Positions 2,679 to 26,059 of a DNA stretch of 36,308 bases are shown piece after piece. Numbering within the stretch: position 1 is the first letter of the stretch; each line of letters starts with the position of its first letter. The notes below the pieces were generated by a model that did no database searches, was not told the DNA's origin, and was given only the letters and a program-made list of their open reading frames with translations. The translations under genes and the position numbers were made by a program. The stretch lies in the NCBI GenBank assembly GCA_900128395.1, contig LT649338.1, forward strand, positions 1 to 36,308, given 5' to 3'. Origin of the DNA: Stramenopiles sp. TOSAG23-2 (lineage: Eukaryota).

Positions 2679-5600
2679 TTAACAATTTGTCACGCTGATT
2701 CTTGGCACAATATTCATTGCTTGCAATTCCTGAAACAATAATTTTGCTGCATATGGCAATTTCAACTCTGTTAATTCATAATCAACACCAACATTTTCAC
2801 AATAACTGCATTTACCAGGAAATGCCAACAAGCCACATGATTGGCAGACAGTTGCTGAATAGACATCACTTGAAATCATCAATCGTTCCAACAACAATGA
2901 ACTAGCACCGTATCCAATTAGGCAATCACGTTCCATCTCACCTAAACGTAAACCACCATCTCTTGCTCGACCTTCCGTTGGTTGTCGTGTTAATACTGCT
3001 CTTGGTCCTCGGGACCTAGCATGCATTTTATCTAAAACCATATGCTTTAATTTTTGATAGTAGACAGGGCCCATAAATATATATGCACTCAAAGGTTCCC
3101 CCGTGGTGCCAGAATACAGCATATCCTTTCCTGCATAATTGTAACCATAATCAATCAACGTTTGACTACATTCATCTACCCCTACAGCGCCACCATAATC
3201 CTCACCAAATGCAGTACCATACATACGTTTTCCAGAAAGCACGCCAGCTTTCGAGGCAATTAATTCAATCATTTTTGCAACCGTCATACGTGATGGGAAA
3301 CCATGAGGATTCATAATCATATCAGGGCATAGACCATCATCTGAAAACGGCAAATCTTCCTGTGGCACTATAATACCACATACACCTTTTTGACCATGCC
3401 TACTACTGAATTTATCTCCTAACTCTGGTATTCTCATTTGACGTATAAGGATTTTAATCATTATCGTTTCATCTTGATTAGAGGTGATCAAAACTTTATC
3501 AACAACACCATCCCCTCCAACAGGGGCTTTGTATACTAAATTAGACTCTTGGTATTCAATATCAGGTTCTGATTGTTGTTCATATTCGATGCCATCTATT
3601 GTGTTTTTAGGGGTATCTTTCCGTACTAATGTAAATTTTGGTTCAACCTTTCTGCCTACACCTACAATACCATCGCTATCAATAGCTTGCAAATTGTTTT
3701 TCTTACTCGCACTGATATTTTCCCATGCCCCTTCCCCTTCTGCAGTGCCACGAATGCGATCACGTGTATTATTAGCATATCGTCGTACGGTAGTACCAAA
3801 TTTTTTCATTACCATACATCGTCCATACCCTCTATCAACACTTGCTTTATTTAGCACCACTGCATCTTCAATATCATAACCACTATAACTCATGACAGCT
3901 ATAATAGCATTTTGCCCTGCTGGTAATTTATCAAAATTGACCAAATCCAACACCCTTGTCGTTACTAATGGTTTCATTGGGTACAACATTAAATACAATA
4001 AAGTATCTACGCGATTGTATTGATTATATCCAATAGTTCCTATTGCTTGTTTTCCCATAGCGCATTGGTATGTATTGCGTGGACTTTGATTGTGATGTGG
4101 GAATGGAATTAAACCAGCAACTGTTCCTAATATACTCATTGGATCTATTTCCATATGTGTATGTTTCGTAGTAGCACCACGTTCATCGATACATATATAA
4201 CAGTTATTTTCTTCGTTTACGTCAATAAATTCGACTATCCCTAAATCGACTAAATCCCAAAATTCCATTTCATCATTTGGATCTTTTATACGATCAATAT
4301 GTTTTTGTTCTAATTCACAGATCCCATTTTCAACGATTAGCAATGGTCGGCAAACACGACCAGCATCAGAGGATATATATATGCAACGATGTTCTTCATG
4401 CAAATGGATACTAACGTACCTGCCAAATTTACGTGCACGACGTAGGCATTTCAATTCGCGCTCAAATTTACGAGGATTTCTATGTGCCCCAAGTAATCTC
4501 CCATTTAAGAACACGATGAAATTTTCTTCTGAATATAATTCTTCCCCAGTCAATTCAGATGCATCGACAACACCCAATGTAAATGCAAGTCTTGATATTG
4601 GTCCCTCCTCTTCATCAGATGTTACATGCGTTAGTAATGCTAAATTTTTTACCAAACCACATGATTCCCCTTCCGGTGTATCACTTGGACACAGCATACC
4701 CCATTGTGAACTTTGCAATGAACGTGGACCACTAACTTTTCTCGTCTTTTCAAATTGACTTGTTATTCTGGACATATGCCCTAATGATGATATGTATGAT
4801 AAACGTGACAGTTGCTGTGTGACACCTTGTCGATCCATGCGAAAACGTTTTAAGCTCCAATTTCCCGTTGATATCATTTGTGTAAATCCATTTGTAATAG
4901 TATCTTCTCTTATATATTTCAATGCATTAAATTTTGCAGACCGATTGTGCTTTGTTAAAATGATATCAGCCTGTCGTTGGATTTCAGTATTAAAGCGTTT
5001 AAATAAATCTTCAAATAATAATGACATTAATGAGCCTGCTAACTCTAATCGTTTGTTTCCATAATAATCTTTATCGTCTAAACGACTTCTATCAATATGG
5101 GCAATAATTGCCATGCGAGTCATATAGGCGACGTAAATCGCTTTTTGATGAAAATTATACGATGGTGATGGAATATGTGGCAAAACAACAGATGCAATAA
5201 CTTCCCTGGCTTCATCTGCTGGATCTCTATCTCTGTGATGCCATCTACGCCTTGCACTCCTTGCTTTCATATTTTTGATGCGCGTACCGATTAATACATG
5301 AGCTTGTTCACATGTGTATATATCCATCTCATGTATCTCTTGAAAGGAAGGTGTCAAAAGGGAAGCTATTCTTCCATCCGTCCCAGCAATTAATGATACA
5401 ATTTCTGCATCGCTTTCAATGCCTAATGCTTTTAAAAAAACAACAATTGGTATATCCTCTCCAAGGGTATTTTGTTTCATATATAATTTACCATTTTTTA
5501 AAACAATAGCGCAACGTGATTTGCGTTCATGTGTAGAGCTCATAACAGTGGAACAAATATTACCTTTACCACTAATTTCAACAATAACTCTATTTTTCGA

Positions 5601-6246
5601 TAATTGTTCATGTATTAAAATAACTTTTTCTTGCCCTTTAACAATAAAATAACCACCTGGATCCATTGGACCTATATATGACATGGAACAAAATGATTGT
5701 TAGAGAAAAGAAAAATACAATATAAGTGTGTGTGTGTAGTAAGAAAAAAGGAGAAAGACAAATAATAATTTACGGACATTCTTTCAACGTAGCTAATTCT
5801 TTTTCAGATTTGCCTCTTAAATTACAACGGCAACTTTTTAACATTATAGGTACACGTCCAATACAGACATTTGTTTTTGGCGTCATTACTTGCCCCTTAC
5901 GATACATAATATCAACAAAAACAGGGGCGCTATAAGTCAGATCTTGCAATCTGCACATAATTGGTGTAGTTGACATCACTTGTTCATAACCCAGCTCTAC
6001 GTTGGGGAAGCCAACACGAATTTTAGAGTAAGAAATAATAACTTTACCATCAACAGTACTTTTAACTACCCGGTTTGATTTAATTATTTTGTGAATTTCC
6101 TCACGTAAAAAATGGTCAAAAGAATCAATGTGTTGTCTAACTAAACCACGTACTCTTAAATAATCAGGTATTAATTGCCACTTGTCTTCAAGGCGTTTTA
6201 TAGAGGCACCAGGTGCTCTTTCTCCAAAACTCTTATTGGAAAACAT
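2679..6246 (-). CDS. RPC2: RNA polymerase III second-largest subunit; exons 6246-5778 and 5671-2679 (~1153 aa)
   Basis: Pol III-type motifs GLVRQHIDSF, KTRKVSGPRSLQ, HHNQSPRNTYQCAMGKQA, GDKFSSRHGQKG, LRLGEMERDC; the splice restores conserved ECPMDPGGYF. Confidence 0.96.
5672..5777 (-). other. Spliceosomal intron of RPC2 (106 bp, GTCCGT...ATAG)
   Basis: This GT-AG pair keeps the frame and gives ECPMDPGGYF. Confidence 0.85.
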
Positions 6247-17286: not shown

Positions 17287-18351
17287 TTAACTTGAAGTTG
17301 TATATACATTTATCATATCAAATCGTTGTACTAATATGCAAAATACAACAAACGAAAAGATAAATACACAGATATCATCTAATATACCACGAAGGTGATT
17401 CATTAATTGTACTATTGATGCTATACTACCAGCGTTGTCTGATGATTCGACACTTAACATTGGAAAGTATCTAATTCGTAATATATAAAATAATGTTTGT
17501 ACAACTAAACGTAGAAAAATAATTGCAAAACCAATATTTTGTATTGGAAAAGATTCCATAGATGAATAAATCAATACGCCAAAAGGTTGCTGCTCTCTAT
17601 TGTCAATATTATTATTATTATTGTTATTAGATTCTTGTCCATCTTGAAGATCAGCAATTTTAGTAACAATCAATATATTTACAACAATAAATGCGAATAA
17701 TACTTGTATCCATGTACAACAAAACTCCTCTGTTTTATTAAATTTTTCATAATTTTTTTTACGATTCATAACACTTGATCTAGCAGCTAAAGATGTTTCT
17801 TTCGAAACAGAACTAGAAGTATTATTACTTTTATTATCATTATTTTCATCAGATTCTTTTTCTTCTTCGTTTACTCTTTTTTTACGTGCTCGTCTTCGAA
17901 ATGAACTTGAAAATGTAGCAGATCTTGAAGCTGTCCATGTTTCCTGTCGTAGAAATTTTACATCCGCTTCATCATCCACATTATCACTGTTTTTTTCCTT
18001 TTTTTCTTCTTTTACTTTGTCACTATCTACAACATTTGCTGTAGCTGGCATTTTATTTCCTTTCTCAGTTTCTGTTTTCTCAAGCTTTATGCTTGATAAG
18101 CTTTCTTCGTTATCAACATTATCATTACTGCTGATCGCGGATGAAGTTGATTCTAAGCTGTTTGTCATGAAACTTGGACGTTGTCTTCTACGTCGTCTAG
18201 GTTTCTTTTCACTATTATTCTCACCATTTACAGAATCAATATTTCCTTGTCCAGATACAACTGACATTCTAGCTTGACTTTTTGCTAATATTCTTTGCCT
18301 GCGACGTTCCGCCGCTCTTTTTGATTTATTCGCTGCATCCACATCACTCAT
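17287..18351 (-). CDS. GET2/CAML-like ER tail-anchored-protein insertase subunit
   Basis: N-terminal AERRRQRILAKSQARMSVVSG resembles the GET3-binding motif; disordered linker; three C-terminal TM segments. Confidence 0.7.
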   Translation of the reverse strand: MSDVDAANKSKRAAERRRQRILAKSQARMSVVSGQGNIDSVNGENNSEKKPRRRRRQRPSFMTNSLESTSSAISSNDNVDNEESLSSIKLEKTETEKGNKMPATANVVDSDKVKEEKKEKNSDNVDDEADVKFLRQETWTASRSATFSSSFRRRARKKRVNEEEKESDENNDNKSNNTSSSVSKETSLAARSSVMNRKKNYEKFNKTEEFCCTWIQVLFAFIVVNILIVTKIADLQDGQESNNNNNNNIDNREQQPFGVLIYSSMESFPIQNIGFAIIFLRLVVQTLFYILRIRYFPMLSVESSDNAGSIASIVQLMNHLRGILDDICVFIFSFVVFCILVQRFDMINVYTTSS

Positions 18352-18588
18352 TTTGTCTGAACTTTCTATCTTATCAACGATATATAATCTTTGTTAATAA
18401 TAGTTTCTTCTTTTGTATTATTCTATTTTGTATATCTATTAATTCATTTTTTTAATAGTTAGTATATATACATATATCTATAATATTATAATATATTTAG
18501 CACATAAATAGCATTATTATAAAGCATATTTTATATAATATAAAAAATATGTAATATACTCCCTCACACACATACTTGATTTACCACT

Positions 18589-21462
18589 TTACGTACTTTG
18601 CAATTGTTCAATTAATTTTTTTGCTTCCTTTAATTGATCTTCTAAATTACTTTTATCTTTTTCTAATCGTTGTATTCGTTGCCTTTGGATATCCCATTGA
18701 TTTGCCATGTCAATTACTTGTGTCGTAAATGCAGTTGTTTGACGTTGGATTTTTTTTGCATCTGATATTAATGTTTTAAATTTACCAGAATTAGTACCAG
18801 CTTCTTTTTCTACCTGTTTCCCTTTATTATCTAAACGTTGAATAATAGCATCAAGTTTGGTAACCATATCATTATTTCTTTCAGTTGAAGCTGTTTCAGC
18901 ATCTGCAATTGCTGACAATATTTTAGAATTACCCTTTCCAACATTAACATTATTATTGCTGTTGTTACCATCTTTCAAAATCGACGGTGATGGTGTATCA
19001 TTATCAATACGAAATCCATCATTGACTTTAAACAATGTTTGGGACACACCACGGACACTTTCAGACATTTCACTCTCTGAACGACTATGTATTGGTGAAC
19101 TTGGGGTATCTTCCTCTATACGCAAATCTGAATCTTTATCATTCTGACCAGGTGTTTCATATGTAACTTTAAAACGTTTCAATTGCATCGCAGGTGCAAC
19201 AAATACTTCGTCGTCTTCATCATCGTTGCTATACAACACATTATCCATTTGTAATTTTAATTTCGCTTCCTCTTCTTTTTTAATTAAATCTGCGGCTTCA
19301 TTTAACAATCCTATTTTCTCTTGTGCATCCAAATTCTCTGCCGCGGTGCTTTTCTTGAGCCCTTCGTCACTACCAGTACCATCTTCATCAAAACCTTCGG
19401 ATTTAGAGGAAATGTAACCATTGCTATTGTAGTCATCCTGATCGATCGTTATAATTTGTGATGGCGATGATTTACGAACTTCATCTCCAGACACTTCAAC
19501 TACTTCAAATCGACTTGCAGTGGCATTCGTAGCGGATGAGCCATCATCGATTTCATTAGTGGGTGTTTCAAGAAGGTTATTGTTTTCGTTCCTATTACCC
19601 TTACTATTATTTTGGGTATCATTCGTGGGTGATATGACTTTAAAGCGTGATCCGACAGCGTTATTGTTATTATCATTATTTGAATTGTCCGTTCTTTGTT
19701 GTGTGTCTGTCTCATTATCAATTACATCATCATTATAACTTGTGTCATTATCGATGATTATATTATCCGATTTATTATTATTTGGTTCATCTATTGGAAC
19801 CTTCTCTTCCACGATGGTAAATCTACCTACTTGGACTTCATTTGTTTCTTCTTCTTCTTCGCCATCTTCTTCTTTATTAATATTCTTATTGGCATTGTTA
19901 TCGTTGGGCGTAACTTCCATATTGTTAATGTTACTCAATCCTCTTTCTTCTAATGTATCAATTTGCAATGGTATCGCTGGTGGCTTTTCTTCTTCAACAA
20001 GTGTAAATCGTCCAACATTTGTAGTAGTAGTGGTAGTAGTATTACTACTCATGCTATTATTATTGTTATTATTATTATTGTTGTTGTTGTTGTTATTTGT
20101 TACAGTCTTCCCATTGTTTGATTTGCTTGTCACTTTTGATGTAGTAGATTGTACAGTAAAACGTCCGACATGTACAGGTTCCGTTGTTGTTGCTTTCTTG
20201 CCGTTATTAAGTGTACTTTGTGACGTATTTGATGATGATGATGCTACTGTTGTTGTTGCTGAACGCGCTGTAAAACGACCTACTTTTGCTACTGGTTCTT
20301 CAACTTTTGAAATATTAGTAGACTTACTTGAGTTGCTATTAACTGCATTTGAGGACGTATTTAATGTTGTTGTTGTTACTGCTGAACGTGCTGTAAAACG
20401 ACCTACTTTTGCTACTGGTTCTTCGACTGTTGAATTGTTATTAGTATTATTGCTATTGCTTGAGTTGTTATTATCAATTGAACGTGCTGTAAAACGACCT
20501 ACTTTCGCTACTGGTTCTTCGACTTTTGATATATTATTAGTATTATTATTATTATTATTTGAGATTTTAGTATCCACTGAACGTGCTGTAAAACGACCTA
20601 CTTTGGCTACTGGTTCCTCGACTTTTGAAATATTATTAGTATTATTGCTATTATTGATATTATTATTATTTGAGGTGTTAGTATCAACTGAACGTGCTGT
20701 AAAACGACCTACTTTTGCTACTGGTTCCTCGACTTTTGAAATATTGGTACTATTATTTTTCATCGCATTATTACTCTTTCCGTTGCTATCATCAACTGAA
20801 CGTGCTGTAAAACGACCAACTTTTGCTACCGGTTCTTCTACTTGTGAGATACTATTACTATTATTATTATTTTTAATCACATTATTATTACTATTCCTAT
20901 TGTTATTGTTATTCACGCTATTGTTGTTGTTTTTGCTATTTTGCTGATTCGAGTTTTTATCATTAATACTAGTATCCGTCATACTTCGAGTAGATATAGT
21001 AAAACGTCCAACTTTTTTTTCAACTGGTTGTGGTTCAGAAATATTCTTATTGTTCTTATTATTATTACCAGCCTTTGTCGCATTAGAGGAACTATTATTT
21101 CTGTAGTTATTGTTGTTACTATTATTACTATTATTATTGTTGTTATTATTATTCTTATTATTGTTATTATTGTTATTATTATTCTTATTATTCTTATTAT
21201 TGTTATTGTTTGCCACAACAACATTATTACTAGGTGTTGATGAATGTATTTTGAATCTACCAATATTTAAAACGCTAACATCTTCTTTAATACTACCATT
21301 TGATAATGCACTATAATCAAGACTTTTAGACGAGTCACCCTTGTTGTTGTTCTTGTTGTTGTTGTTATTATTACTTGAACTTTCACTTGTAGAACTAGAC
21401 CGTTTAGTAGCATTATTTACTGATGCAGCAATTGTAAATCTTCCAACTTTTTTTTCTTCCAT
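18589..21462 (-). CDS. Asn-rich disordered protein with 15 RFx-hydrophobic motifs and C-terminal coiled coil; the 3' end may be spliced
   Basis: 957-aa ORF with repeated (V/I)GRF(T/K)x; heptads in the last ~95 aa; GTACGT donor candidate at 18596. Confidence 0.85.
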   Translation of the reverse strand: MEEKKVGRFTIAASVNNATKRSSSTSESSSNNNNNNKNNNKGDSSKSLDYSALSNGSIKEDVSVLNIGRFKIHSSTPSNNVVVANNNNNKNNKNNNNNNNNNKNNNNNNNNSNNSNNNNYRNNSSSNATKAGNNNKNNKNISEPQPVEKKVGRFTISTRSMTDTSINDKNSNQQNSKNNNNSVNNNNNRNSNNNVIKNNNNSNSISQVEEPVAKVGRFTARSVDDSNGKSNNAMKNNSTNISKVEEPVAKVGRFTARSVDTNTSNNNNINNSNNTNNISKVEEPVAKVGRFTARSVDTKISNNNNNNTNNISKVEEPVAKVGRFTARSIDNNNSSNSNNTNNNSTVEEPVAKVGRFTARSAVTTTTLNTSSNAVNSNSSKSTNISKVEEPVAKVGRFTARSATTTVASSSSNTSQSTLNNGKKATTTEPVHVGRFTVQSTTSKVTSKSNNGKTVTNNNNNNNNNNNNNNSMSSNTTTTTTTNVGRFTLVEEEKPPAIPLQIDTLEERGLSNINNMEVTPNDNNANKNINKEEDGEEEEETNEVQVGRFTIVEEKVPIDEPNNNKSDNIIIDNDTSYNDDVIDNETDTQQRTDNSNNDNNNNAVGSRFKVISPTNDTQNNSKGNRNENNNLLETPTNEIDDGSSATNATASRFEVVEVSGDEVRKSSPSQIITIDQDDYNSNGYISSKSEGFDEDGTGSDEGLKKSTAAENLDAQEKIGLLNEAADLIKKEEEAKLKLQMDNVLYSNDDEDDEVFVAPAMQLKRFKVTYETPGQNDKDSDLRIEEDTPSSPIHSRSESEMSESVRGVSQTLFKVNDGFRIDNDTPSPSILKDGNNSNNNVNVGKGNSKILSAIADAETASTERNNDMVTKLDAIIQRLDNKGKQVEKEAGTNSGKFKTLISDAKKIQRQTTAFTTQVIDMANQWDIQRQRIQRLEKDKSNLEDQLKEAKKLIEQLQST
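20261..20845 (-). repeat. Six near-identical coding repeats (VEEPVAKVGRFTARS) separated by variable Asn/Ser/Thr spacers
   Basis: gaacgtgctgtaaaacgacctacttttgctactggttc core at about 20261, 20384, 20480, 20579, 20690 and 20798. Confidence 0.95.
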
Positions 21463-22196
21463 TTTCGATTATATTTATATTCTACTTTATATATATGTAT
21501 CGTATCTTCTTTTGTGTCTATCTGTGTGTGTGTGTGTGTGTATATATATATGCTTGTGCTTGTACATTTTATACGGCTACATGTACACACTTCAATATAT
21601 CTATCTATACATTATCGATAGATCCACATTAATTTTGTTTTTTTAGTTTACTGTAATAATCAGACCTCCCTACTCGCACTCCTCCAGCACTCTCCTCTGT
21701 GCTGTAATGCTGTAATTCATTTTAATTGGATTTTTTTTGGTACCTGATGGTATGGAAATTAGAAGACGAAAATAATATATTTATACCTTAAAAGGGAATT
21801 ATACCACAGCCATCTTTTATAGCCATTTATAGATCATATAATAGATATAAACGCGAAGAGACGGAGTACAGATGGTAAGCGAAGAGGCGCGGATCTCGAC
21901 TATCATATTCGTAGAGATATCTAGAAATGCTAACTTTTTTTACGAAGTAATTATATATATGTATAATAGCTTAATATATATACATATTTATTAAATGATA
22001 AAGAAATTATTTTTTATTTTATTTTTTACGCGAATAATATACTCTTTCAACTCTATCTCTCTCTCTCTCTCTTCTCTGTTTTTCTTTTGTGTGTGTGTGT
22101 GTGTGTGTGTGAATATCAAAGGTATGATATATTTTATACACAAGATATATCTCTTTTATACACAAGAGTCGAATATATTATGTACACGTACTCTTT

Positions 22197-23090: not shown

Positions 23091-23827
23091 ATTTGTGTTT
23101 TCTTTTTGTGTGTATGTTTTCGTATTTTTCTTTTATAAAAATAAATAAATAATATACAATTCGATTGTCGTTTTGTATAATTGATTGTCGTATATGGATA
23201 TTGAAATATACCAACGGCAGTACAGTAAAAATATATCTATCTTCATCTGTGTAGGAAAAGATTCATCTTTTATGTGTGTGTATGTGGCTATGATGCATCA
23301 TGTGTGTGTTTATTTCTTAAGCCTGGTATATGCTGCTGTGGTATGCTAATGATGTGGTGTTTTGGTCTCGCGTCGTGAAACAACTTTTTTTTCAACAATA
23401 CTATTTCAATGCTATATCCTGGCTTTATCCAAATCCTTGGGGTTTTCGCAAACATTTTAATAATTCTACTACAATGCTGGAATGGCCTGAATCTATACTA
23501 AACTATATACTAAATCGATAGCTCAGCTATATAAATGAAATAAATTATTAGAAGAAGATGATTATTTTTTGGTGGTGCAAATATACGTTATAAATTTTAT
23601 TGGATTATCATAATAAAACAAACATACATACATGATGACAGAGAGGATGATGATGTGAATAAAACAAATGATTATATATTGCTTTGCATAAAATTTATAT
23701 GTAGAGGATAGACATTTGTCATAAGACATATACATATATCTTATATTTTCTTTTTGGAGGTTTCTATCTCTCTCCCTCTCTGTATATATATAAATATACA
23801 CACATATAGAATAACAACAGTGTGTTG

Positions 23828-26059
23828 ATGGAAACATTATCACCACGTTCGTTGTTTGCTGCATTGGATACCTTTCATGAGGAAACGGTGAAACGACGTC
23901 CAGGCGGAGGAAGAAGAAGAAGAAGGCCACAATCAGCATCTGCGCCGTCTTTAGGTTATCATGATAGTTTATTTGAAGAGTTAGATGAGGTGAAAAATAA
24001 AGCAAAGAAATACAAAGGAAATAAATATAATAAACCATTACGAAAGTCAAAAAGTTTACGATGCGCTACTGCAAATAAAAATAGATCATTGCCATGGGGT
24101 AGTAGTGATGGTGAATTAGCATGGAGAGGTTTTGAGGAAGCAGCAAGTACAATAGATAAAGATATAAATAGAGTTAGATCGTTAACATCAGAAGGGAAAC
24201 GACGTGTAAAATATCATAATAGAACACAAGCAGTACGTAATAAACGTTTAGTTAAAGAAAAAAAAAAGTTACGAGCTATTGCTAAACGTAGAAAATTAGA
24301 GTTAGAAGAAGCTGCTAGAGATGCATTGTTTGAAACAACTGGCGTAAGACCATCACCAAATGAAACTGGTGGTTTAGATGGAAAAGAATTAAAAAATTGG
24401 AAACAATATATGGATTTACATTGTAGAATAATTAAAACGGCAAAACCAACTATGAAAAGTCGGCTGCCAAAGTTTGTTGAACATCGTAGAAAAGATTTAA
24501 AGAAGAAACGATTAGCTAAACGAGTTGGGAGGACATTAAATGATGGTGATTTGGGTGGACCAAAATTATTATGGTGGAGAAAACAACGTGCATTACATGA
24601 TAGAGTTGTTGGTGGTGCAACTGCTAGAGTTTCGCAAGAATTGCCAAAGCATGTAAAAGAAGAAATAGAAATAAAGGAAGAAAAATTGAAAAAAAAATAT
24701 GCAAATTGGAAGTTAGAAAATGGTGGATTAGTAGGCTCAGCAAAAATCCATTGGGATCATATGCGAGAATTACATGAACGAGTTGTTGGAGATGCAAAAT
24801 CATCCGTCTCGACAAAGTTACCAAAACACGTTAGAGAATATAGAGAATATTTAAAAACACAACAAGGTGCACGTAATAATGAAACGTTACATGGAAAAAT
24901 AATGCGTGAAATGCATGAAAAAGTTATCGCAGGTGCAAAGAATATAGTACATTCAAAATTACCAAAACATGTAGAAAATCTAAGAGATATTAAAAGAAAA
25001 AAACATAATGATAAATTTAAAAACTTTAATCCAAATGATGGTGGGTTAGAAGGAAAAGCGCGTTTACATTGGCGTATAATGAAAAAGCAACAAAAAGAAT
25101 TATTAGATCATGTTTCCCCTAAAATACACCAAGAATTGCCAAAACATGTGAGAGAAAGAGGAAAAGAATTAGAAAGAAGGCGAAAAATGAAATATGAAAA
25201 CTGGAGATTAGAGGATGGTGGGTTAGAAGGTACGGCTAAATTACATTGGCGAATTATGCGTCAATTGCATGATGAAATTGTTGGTACTGCAAGTAAATCT
25301 GTCAGTATGAAGTTAGATAAACATGTTGAACATTACAGGGATTATTTAAAAAAAAGAAGCAAAGAAAAATTCAATAATCCAGATAATGCTGGGTTAACTG
25401 GCAAAGAGTTGAAACATTGGCAAATATTATTAGAAACTCATAATAAAGTTGTTGGTGGTGCGGAAGTGCAAACAGAAACAACGTTGCCGCAACATGTAAA
25501 ACGTTTAAGAAAGTTAAAACATACTAAATTAAAAAGGAAAATAGAAAATAGAACGCCAGAAGATGGAGGATTAGAAGGGAAAGAATTAGCACATTGGAAT
25601 GTCATGAAAGAATTGCATGAGCATATTGTCAATAAAGCTGCCCCAGCAGTTGATACTAAACATGAAAAACATGTTATTAGATATGCAAATCATGTAAAAG
25701 CAAAATCAAAGAAGAAATTTGCTGAAATGCATATAGATGATGGATTATTAGAGGGTCGTGAACGAGATTGGTGGAGAAAACAAAGAGAAGTTCATGAAGG
25801 TATAGTTGGAAGGGCAAAATCTTCAGTCGATAATTGGTATGGCGGAAAGCCAGATCAAAGAGATAAAAATGAATTGAGAGTATTTCCACGTCGTGTTGAA
25901 AGTAACGAGACGAAATTAGAGAAAAAGCGTGAGGAGCGTAAGATAACACAGGCGGTAAATGCACAAAATGTTGTAGAAGCATTAAAAATTGTTGAAGAAT
26001 ACAAAGCGCAAGGTTTAATAGAAGAAGCAAAATTGACACCACGAAGTAAAACTATGTAA
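23828..26059 (+). CDS. Basic protein with nine ~57-59-aa tandem repeats, possibly axonemal (CFAP97-like motif)
   Basis: Repeat consensus DGGLEG..L.HW..M.ELH..IVG.A...V...LPKHV; first ATG at 23828. Confidence 0.75.
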   Translation: METLSPRSLFAALDTFHEETVKRRPGGGRRRRRPQSASAPSLGYHDSLFEELDEVKNKAKKYKGNKYNKPLRKSKSLRCATANKNRSLPWGSSDGELAWRGFEEAASTIDKDINRVRSLTSEGKRRVKYHNRTQAVRNKRLVKEKKKLRAIAKRRKLELEEAARDALFETTGVRPSPNETGGLDGKELKNWKQYMDLHCRIIKTAKPTMKSRLPKFVEHRRKDLKKKRLAKRVGRTLNDGDLGGPKLLWWRKQRALHDRVVGGATARVSQELPKHVKEEIEIKEEKLKKKYANWKLENGGLVGSAKIHWDHMRELHERVVGDAKSSVSTKLPKHVREYREYLKTQQGARNNETLHGKIMREMHEKVIAGAKNIVHSKLPKHVENLRDIKRKKHNDKFKNFNPNDGGLEGKARLHWRIMKKQQKELLDHVSPKIHQELPKHVRERGKELERRRKMKYENWRLEDGGLEGTAKLHWRIMRQLHDEIVGTASKSVSMKLDKHVEHYRDYLKKRSKEKFNNPDNAGLTGKELKHWQILLETHNKVVGGAEVQTETTLPQHVKRLRKLKHTKLKRKIENRTPEDGGLEGKELAHWNVMKELHEHIVNKAAPAVDTKHEKHVIRYANHVKAKSKKKFAEMHIDDGLLEGRERDWWRKQREVHEGIVGRAKSSVDNWYGGKPDQRDKNELRVFPRRVESNETKLEKKREERKITQAVNAQNVVEALKIVEEYKAQGLIEEAKLTPRSKTM

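Follow-up and report, generated by a model that had tools for sequence, protein, structure and literature searches.

A new protein family from marine protists combining an array of CCT-ligand-like RFx[V/I] motifs with a predicted C-terminal zipper

The contig LT649338.1 of the Stramenopiles sp. TOSAG23-2 assembly (GCA_900128395.1), analyzed here over positions 1 to 36,308 (the whole stretch of 36,308 nucleotides, hereafter the window), contains on its minus strand a complete and intronless coding sequence (18589..21462), a single open frame of 957 codons followed by a stop, whose product belongs to a new protein family. The protein displays 15 short motifs built on an Arg-Phe dipeptide along a chain that, going by the model of an orthologue, is largely disordered, and ends in a conserved helix predicted to pair with a second copy of itself. 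We give an even chance to the reading that this is a dimeric, disordered and multivalent scaffold with CCT-type ligand motifs, which would cluster WNK- or OSR1-like kinases as the unrelated TSC22D and KS-WNK1 do; plausibly, it is a convergent scaffold of the TSC22D/KS-WNK1 type.

All 15 RF dipeptides of the protein are part of an RFx[V/I/L/A] motif: RFTI three times (residues 8, 153 and 547), RFKI (69), RFTV (434), RFTL (485), RFKV twice (606 and 763), RFEV (651) and RFTA six times (217-396). This reproduces exactly the list given in an earlier note on this DNA, which had been made from the sequence alone. Counting from Phe as position 0, eight of the 15 motifs are canonical R-F-x-V/I, one has Leu at +2 and six have Ala. 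In 2000 shuffles of the protein we found on average 0.19 such motifs, with a maximum of 3. The motifs hold most of the Phe residues, namely 15 of 21 in the whole protein and 15 of 19 in its disordered part. In the 12 other open reading frames (ORFs) of the window (7,008 amino acids) there are six RF dipeptides and no RFx[V/I], and the enrichment is thus not a genome-wide habit. The chain is rich in Asn, Ser and Thr (192, 113 and 83 of the 957 residues), as the earlier note had remarked; the note had also described the motifs as regularly spaced, and here the array itself stands while the regularity is loose, the gaps between motifs ranging from 32 to 112 residues. A Pfam scan of the whole protein at E<=1 returned zero families, in line with the claim that it has no catalytic domain.

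Twelve of the motifs, of the form [V/I]GRFx[V/I/L/A], lie in the disordered N-terminal part (residues 5-551; 19810..21450, minus strand). Their RFxX core codons, all on the minus strand, are at 21430-21441, 21247-21258, 20995-21006, 20803-20814, 20695-20706, 20584-20595, 20485-20496, 20389-20400, 20266-20277, 20152-20163, 19999-20010 and 19813-19824. Six of these motifs form a tandem array (20259..20875, minus strand) of EEPVAKVGRFTARS units, in which +2 is Ala (the RFTA variants), repeated with a period of 99-111 nucleotides (nt) and 80-83% matches. Five codons of the 14-residue core vary across the six copies, and all differences are synonymous. All three complete array sequences (the window and two near-identical metagenomic loci, L001 and L002) have six copies, so that the “expanding” valency proposed earlier shows no sign of going on now. 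The remaining three motifs are distal and also on the minus strand: GSRFKV at residue 606 (19636..19647), ASRFEVVEV at residue 651 (19501..19512) and KRFKVTYETPG at residue 763 (19165..19176).

Relatives of the protein were found in several searches. With phmmer against 1.84 billion representative sequences we obtained 11 hits, several of them fragments of the window's own gene, and those from other organisms being P0002, P0004, P0006, P0007, P0008 and P0010; a profile search with the C-terminal domain added P0015 and the full-length P0013. None of the relatives from these phmmer and profile searches carries a name or a Pfam domain. Orthologues thus identified occur in at least three other marine protists. 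P0013 (658 residues) has five VGRFxV motifs plus the three distal ones, and P0008 (596 residues) has four plus three; P0007 and P0015 are partial sequences. A metagenome scan gave six loci, of which L001-L003 are near-identical copies of the window gene, L004 belongs to the species of P0013 (GC content 0.47) and L005 to the species of P0008 (GC content 0.44). The sixth, L006, was rejected as a relative (35% identity over 43 residues; an unrelated membrane protein), as was P0011, one of the 11 phmmer hits and an unrelated repeat protein, with an E of 8.9e-4. A word-index search with the whole protein found nothing, its low-complexity words having probably crowded out relatives, and the same search with P0008 found only itself. 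In the ESM Atlas the best scores were 0.81 and 0.86, which is low recognition, and TSC22 and WNK clusters were absent; we take these matches as leads only. A literature search found no publication coupling “RFXV” with “protist”.

Two of the sequences recovered need a comment. At 4255-4275 of L004 a run of G is one base off with respect to P0006 and P0013, which splits the frame of the orthologue; a mistake in assembly or sequencing seems a better account of it than a pseudogene. In P0016 (200 residues) an unrelated N-terminus bearing a hydrophobic segment is followed by residues that match the final 59 of the window protein at 100% identity; it lies on a contig of 857 nt, and a chimera made in assembly or gene calling is probable.

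The full-length members share a common plan. They begin with Met, a few acidic or basic residues and a first VGRFx[V/I] motif within residues 1-20, and carry N-terminal motifs of the VGRFx[V/I] class numbering five in P0013, four in P0008 and 12 in the window protein. Then come the distal motifs at conserved positions (GSRFK[V/Q/E], SRF[E/S][V/I/L]V and RFxxx[Y/F]xTP) and the conserved C-terminal helix. The first distal motif keeps its position in P0013 and P0008, where it reads SRFKQ and NRFKE respectively and is degenerate at +2. The second is kept in three other species as SRFEVVEV, SRFSIV and SRFSLVV, and the third appears elsewhere as RFNVTYETPG, RFVQHYNTPA and RFKVNFNTPA. Asn makes up 21.6% of the disordered part in the window protein, as against 4.3% in P0013 and 5.8% in P0008. 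Judged from these sequences, Asn-richness is not a family trait and mirrors the AT-rich genome; since it is limited to the window species, it is no argument for condensation.

In L001, which is nearly identical to the window gene, an in-frame stop lies two codons upstream of the start Met. Four RNA libraries (three studies; poly(A)/oligo-dT and metatranscriptome library types) hold contigs that align to 18513-20014 with 0-5 mismatches and zero joints, spanning the 3' half of the gene; one of these contigs covers 1259 nt on 18616-19874 with one mismatch. The repeat array and the 5' third are patchily covered in each of the four runs, the array being poorly assembled, with gaps and joints that we leave uninterpreted, many of the joints having sides of 20-30 nt inside repeats. 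DNA of the window is present, wholly or partly, in 20 of 24 listed marine and seawater metagenome and metatranscriptome entries. These come from 12 studies, and the source itself may be among them; RNA libraries make up six of the entries, from four studies. The source organism is therefore an uncultured marine protist, and the dictyostelid that the AT- and Asn-richness might suggest was rejected on these marine and seawater occurrences.

Aligned across the family, the motifs stand out from their surroundings. Conservation of the motifs relative to their spacers had been set beforehand as a point on which the proposal could fail, and the outcome was favourable: of the columns aligned among the three full-length proteins, 20 of 46 are identical within motifs, against 21 of 360 elsewhere in the disordered part, a contrast that is somewhat circular given that the alignment was anchored on the motifs. 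For the C-terminal part the count is 31 of 106. The spacers between motifs do not align across orthologues. The three near-identical environmental variants differ by one substitution (Leu to Ile at +2) in 222 aligned motif residues, compared to 52 in 2,260 other residues; one motif substitution where about five would be expected gives weak support for constraint. In L002 the residue equivalent to residue 488 of the window protein makes the motif RFTI, versus RFTL in the window and two others, a change towards the canonical residue at +2. Two orthologues have an extra RF at the start of the conserved helix (RFLR and RFQR; residues 537-540 of P0008 and 594-597 of P0013), which is replaced elsewhere (KIQR around residues 905-908 of the window protein, KFQR in species B), placing it outside the motif array.

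We tallied 33 motif instances from four species and compared them with the specificity of CCT domains. Arg(-1) and Phe(0) are present in all 33, and are the two residues that Taylor et al. describe as essential for CCT binding (PMC12413468, cited throughout from parts of its text). Val is found at -3 in 21 instances, and -2 is Gly in 22, Ser in seven, Asn in two, Lys in one and Gln in one, that is, Gly, Ser or Asn in 31. Position +1 is unconstrained (Thr in 16, Lys in eight, and others), and +2 is Val in 16, Ile in six, Ala in six, Leu in two, Gln in two and Glu in one, which gives the CCT-ligand core R-F-x-V/I to 22 of the 33 instances. Pro is rare within -4..+4 (three instances, all in distal motifs of orthologues). 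Going by these counts, the conserved motif is longer than RFxV, and reads V(-3) G/S(-2) R F x V/I.

The reference CCT ligand from WNK4, QLVGRFQVTSSKE, has the motif LVGRFQV and binds the CCT domains that OSR1 and SPAK carry (PMC12413468). According to the same source, branched residues at -4 and -3 together with Gly at -2 raise affinity, and Ala at -4 or -3, or Ala or Ser in place of Gly at -2, lowers binding; OSR1 strongly prefers Gly at -2, followed by Ser, Thr, His and Asn; Pro is unfavourable within or near the core; and the validated motifs have in common Val at -3, Gly or Ser at -2 and Ser or Thr at +3 (PMC12413468). The protist consensus V-G-R-F-x-V/I agrees with this specificity at all five constrained positions, with Ser or Asn used at -2 in the distal motifs, and diverges at +3. 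By its sequence it fits the definition of the RFx[V/I] / RxFx[V/I] class of motifs (ligands of OSR1_C/PF2 domains), and docking on such domains is predicted. Like the validated human motifs, the protist motifs have Val at -3 and Gly, Ser or Asn at -2, and they are located in a region modelled as disordered; unlike the class, six of them carry Ala, two Leu and three Gln or Glu at +2. In six human proteins, changing Val or Ile at +2 to Ala reduced affinity by one to two orders of magnitude or made binding undetectable (PMC12413468). If the same held in the protist, binding at the RFTA units would be weak, which fits the earlier suggestion that RFTA is a low-affinity variant. Other motif classes were considered: for PP1 RVxF, LIR, B56 LxxIxE, cyclin RxL and calcineurin PxIxIT the pattern, the spacing or the flanks do not fit, and a basophilic phosphosite at Thr was discarded with Thr at +1 in just 16 of the 33 instances. 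Kinase partners are plausible, in that WNK kinases are encoded by protists and algae (Xiao et al., 10.1101/2024.02.13.579840, in the part consulted), and protists go unmentioned in the consulted part of the review PMC13686953.

The region bearing the motifs is modelled as disordered and the C-terminal domain as helical. In an AlphaFold2 (AF2) model of P0013, built on a shallow alignment of five sequences, 525 of the 658 residues have a predicted local distance difference test score (pLDDT) <50, including nearly all of residues 1-534; the confident parts are two helices (538-573 and 582-657). Short strands are modelled at two motifs (residues 127-136 and 199-206), with pLDDT about 52-56. The conserved C-terminal helical domain of the window protein (residues 864-957; 18592..18873, minus strand) has 27 invariant columns in five sequences, comprising the box FT.QV.DMANQW and heptad positions I/L/K/L/L/A/I/L. 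These last 94 residues are predicted to fold as helices at 2-24 and 29-93 with a mean pLDDT of 85.9, consistent with the C-terminal coiled coil read from the sequence earlier.

When two copies of the 94 residues were modelled together, the median complex score over three runs was 0.40, and the best of three controls 0.00. The 0.40 mark was reached by 21 of 30 solved one-chain pairs versus 0 of 23 solved single chains in a microbial benchmark, and by 17 of 29 versus 0 of 30 in a eukaryotic one, where just one of seven pairs lacking an older solved relative reached it. The dimer runs agreed in at least 46% of contacts, with a partner pLDDT of 68 or more. The in-register contacts (67:67, 70:70, 77:77, 84:84, 88:88 and 91:91 in the numbering of the 94 residues) involve family-invariant residues, and the predicted parallel interface, or zipper, extends over residues 916-955 (18598..18717, minus strand). 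The modelling supports, and does not show, that the conserved C-terminal helix is a parallel two-stranded zipper; coiled coils are abundant among solved structures, and the dimer score may rest on likeness to them.

This layout resembles that of TSC22D proteins (TSC22D1/2/4; Bunched in Drosophila), whose long isoforms, as published, carry three CCT-binding motifs on a disordered chain, form homo- or heterodimers through a C-terminal coiled coil and scaffold WNK, NRBP1 and SPAK (PMC12266122; 10.64898/2026.04.15.718729; both in the parts consulted). Both have a long disordered N-terminal region with motifs, which in TSC22D are of the R-phi / beta-phi type with one canonical RFRV, and both end in a short helical domain that dimerizes (by prediction only in the protist protein), with no catalytic domain. 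They differ in the number of motifs (15, nearly all of one class, versus three), in the sequence of the box preceding the zipper (FT.QV.DMANQW in the protist protein) and in distribution, the protist family coming from marine protists and TSC22D, in the part of 10.1101/2024.02.13.579840 consulted, from Metazoa only and not from choanoflagellates, filastereans or ichthyosporeans. The same source dates the scaffold layer of the pathway (TSC22D, the NRBP binding region and the long disordered tails of WNK) to the origin of animals.

The similarity to TSC22D does not extend to detectable homology. At E<=10, TSC22 (PF01166) was not among the hits listed for the C-terminal domains of five sequences, which were generic coiled-coil families only (for the window copy, the 25 top-ranking of 41 families, the last listed at E 0.23, and the 25 most shared of 68 families). 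A profile search of the C-terminal domain against the PDB, also at E<=10, gave generic coiled coils, the best being that of BST2 at E 0.016. TSC22 homology of this domain was therefore rejected. An RW-type motif (RWTC, the NRBP-binding R-phi-B) is absent from the window protein, whose single Trp is in DMANQW, and there is no RW dipeptide in the five relatives scanned (P0002, P0006, P0007, P0008 and P0010). With the TSC22 domain undetected and no RW motif, the protein is, as far as its sequence tells, not a member of the TSC22D family and at most an analogue. The earlier proposal of an analogue of TSC22D and WNK-body proteins is partly supported, namely in its architecture.

The second comparison is with the C-terminal region of WNK kinases and with their kinase-less isoform KS-WNK1, the latter described as a scaffold of the WNK pathway in condensates (PMC12321387, in the part consulted). 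They also combine a disordered chain with several RFx[V/I] motifs, those of WNK recruiting OSR1 and SPAK through the CCT domain, and WNKs also bear coiled coils. Unlike them, the protist protein has no kinase, CCT-like or other WNK domain, has a higher number of motifs, and places these N-terminal of one terminal zipper. Neither the Pfam scan nor the 11 phmmer hits produced a match to WNK or to any other named family, and on sequence grounds it is not a WNK fragment.

Taking these results together, we picture a cytosolic scaffold without an enzyme domain, whose disordered chain would display many copies of [V]-[G/S]-R-F-x-[V/I] and whose C-terminal helix is predicted to zip two chains in parallel, giving about 30 docking sites per dimer in the window species. 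The partners we infer, by analogy with animals, are the CCT/PF2-type domains of WNK- or OSR1/SPAK-like kinases, docked by beta-strand addition on the model of the identical VGRFQV motif of human WNK4. By the same analogy the dimer would cluster kinases and raise their local concentration, possibly in condensates, favouring trans-activation. As weak sites, the six RFTA units would tune avidity, while binding to other partners may fall to the three distal RF motifs, whose positions are conserved. We deduce the partner, the clustering and a link to cell volume from the likeness to the animal systems, and condensation and volume signalling are purely conjectural. We would also put forward, tentatively and with limited confidence, a more specific scenario, in which a marine protist lineage independently evolved a TSC22D/KS-WNK1-type scaffold, a device credited so far to animals and their WNK “crowding-sensor” bodies, with a zipper dimer whose VGRFx[V/I] array clusters CCT-domain kinases, with three distal RF classes for different CCT-type domains, and with a lineage-specific tandem amplification from 4-5 to 12 N-terminal motifs (six of them weak RFTA) that sets the clustering threshold.

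Several observations weigh against a scaffold for CCT-domain kinases. Ser or Thr at +3, a signature of the validated animal motifs, occurs in just seven of the 33 instances; six of the 15 motifs in the window protein carry Ala at +2; and distal motifs of two orthologues have Gln or Glu there. Sequence, profile and ESM Atlas searches gave no sign that the protein is homologous to TSC22D, to WNK or to another named family, and contigs in RNA libraries by themselves are no proof of transcription. The match at five positions could still be convergence on another partner, and in the RFTA units the constraint extends over 14 residues, which exceeds a CCT ligand and may point to a different reader.

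The main alternative, if on the unlikely side, is that the same dimeric multi-motif architecture is read by a lineage-specific domain other than CCT, for which a cytoskeletal, membrane-traffic or RNA-granule component would be a candidate, with the likeness to WNK4 being convergent. Its best argument is the constrained EEPVAKVGRFTARS unit with Ala at +2, which exceeds a canonical CCT ligand in length and differs from it, next to the scarcity of Ser or Thr at +3; the closest neighbours in feature space (SIR4, NBP1 and TACC_C, generic scaffolds of disordered or coiled-coil type, with scores <=0.86) would also suit it, as leads only. However, the five conserved positions (Val at -3, Gly/Ser/Asn at -2, Arg, Phe, and Val/Ile at +2) match the measured CCT specificity (PMC12413468), and the other motif classes considered do not fit in spacing or flanks.

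If the motifs do bind CCT domains, the protein might instead act as a sponge that sequesters the kinases from their transporters or substrates and so regulates them negatively. High valency without a substrate or catalytic part would be expected of a sponge. Against it, animal TSC22D and KS-WNK1, which have the same layout, are reported to promote signalling (10.64898/2026.04.15.718729; PMC12321387, in the parts consulted), and nothing in the present data separates activation from inhibition; we consider a sponge improbable. We find it more improbable still that the RF motifs are mutually binding beta-strand “stickers” of a gel or fibre, a structural material without a signalling partner. The short strand pairs modelled by AF2 at two motifs of P0013 and the concentration of aromatic residues of the disordered part in the motifs of the window species speak for stickers. 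However, the modelled strands are of low confidence, the invariant Arg and the Gly or Ser at -2 are unexpected for a purely hydrophobic sticker, and no signal peptide or hydrophobic N-terminus was seen in the 957-residue protein, inspected by eye.

Finally, a chance ORF in low-complexity, AT-rich DNA, suggested by the 20% of Asn, by a 401-residue ORF on the opposite strand and by the failure of the first word-index search to find relatives of the whole protein, has practically no probability left and is already refuted by orthologues at GC-richer loci (44-47% GC) that share the order of the motifs and both termini with it, by the purely synonymous differences between repeat cores and by the cover of RNA-library contigs; the gene is real.

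Should the partner of the clustering scaffold be a CCT domain, evolution would have produced multivalent docking scaffolds for kinases of cell volume on more than one occasion. The family would then also offer a natural valency series with which to see how motif number and affinity set clustering, the orthologues having 4-5 N-terminal motifs and the window species 12, including six Ala variants. A truly convergent scaffold would make condensate signalling through multivalent CCT motifs a general eukaryotic, not a metazoan, solution. Even with a partner of another kind, the family defines a new linear motif under strong constraint. In either case it marks an abundant, uncultured group of marine protists.

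The other genes in the window are ordinary eukaryotic ones, including those for RPC2, tubulin, a UDG-family protein, an MTAP-like phosphorylase, a RING protein and an S51 peptidase. The ORF at 2679-5684 (minus strand; 1001 residues) matches RPC2, the second-largest subunit of RNA polymerase III, with 1258 bits to the human and 1184 bits to the yeast protein, a difference that is uninformative as to lineage; its start aligns at about position 162 of the solved chains, which makes a further exon upstream likely. The downstream neighbour of the scaffold gene (17287-18351, minus strand) encodes 354 residues, basic and rich in Ser and Asn in the N-terminal part and with hydrophobic segments towards the other end, at the C-terminus, and has weak matches only (DUF5090 at E 0.042). 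Upstream, the intergenic region at 21500-22100 contains (GT)n/(CA)n microsatellites, which are seen as CVCVCVCV in the translations of two short ORFs. The ORF at 23822-26059 (plus strand; 745 residues), for which Pfam gave zero families, consists of about nine repeats of about 55 residues with the pattern DGGLEGK..LHW..M..LHE..VG.A...V...LPKHV..., and falls in a stretch with strong positive GC and AT skew.

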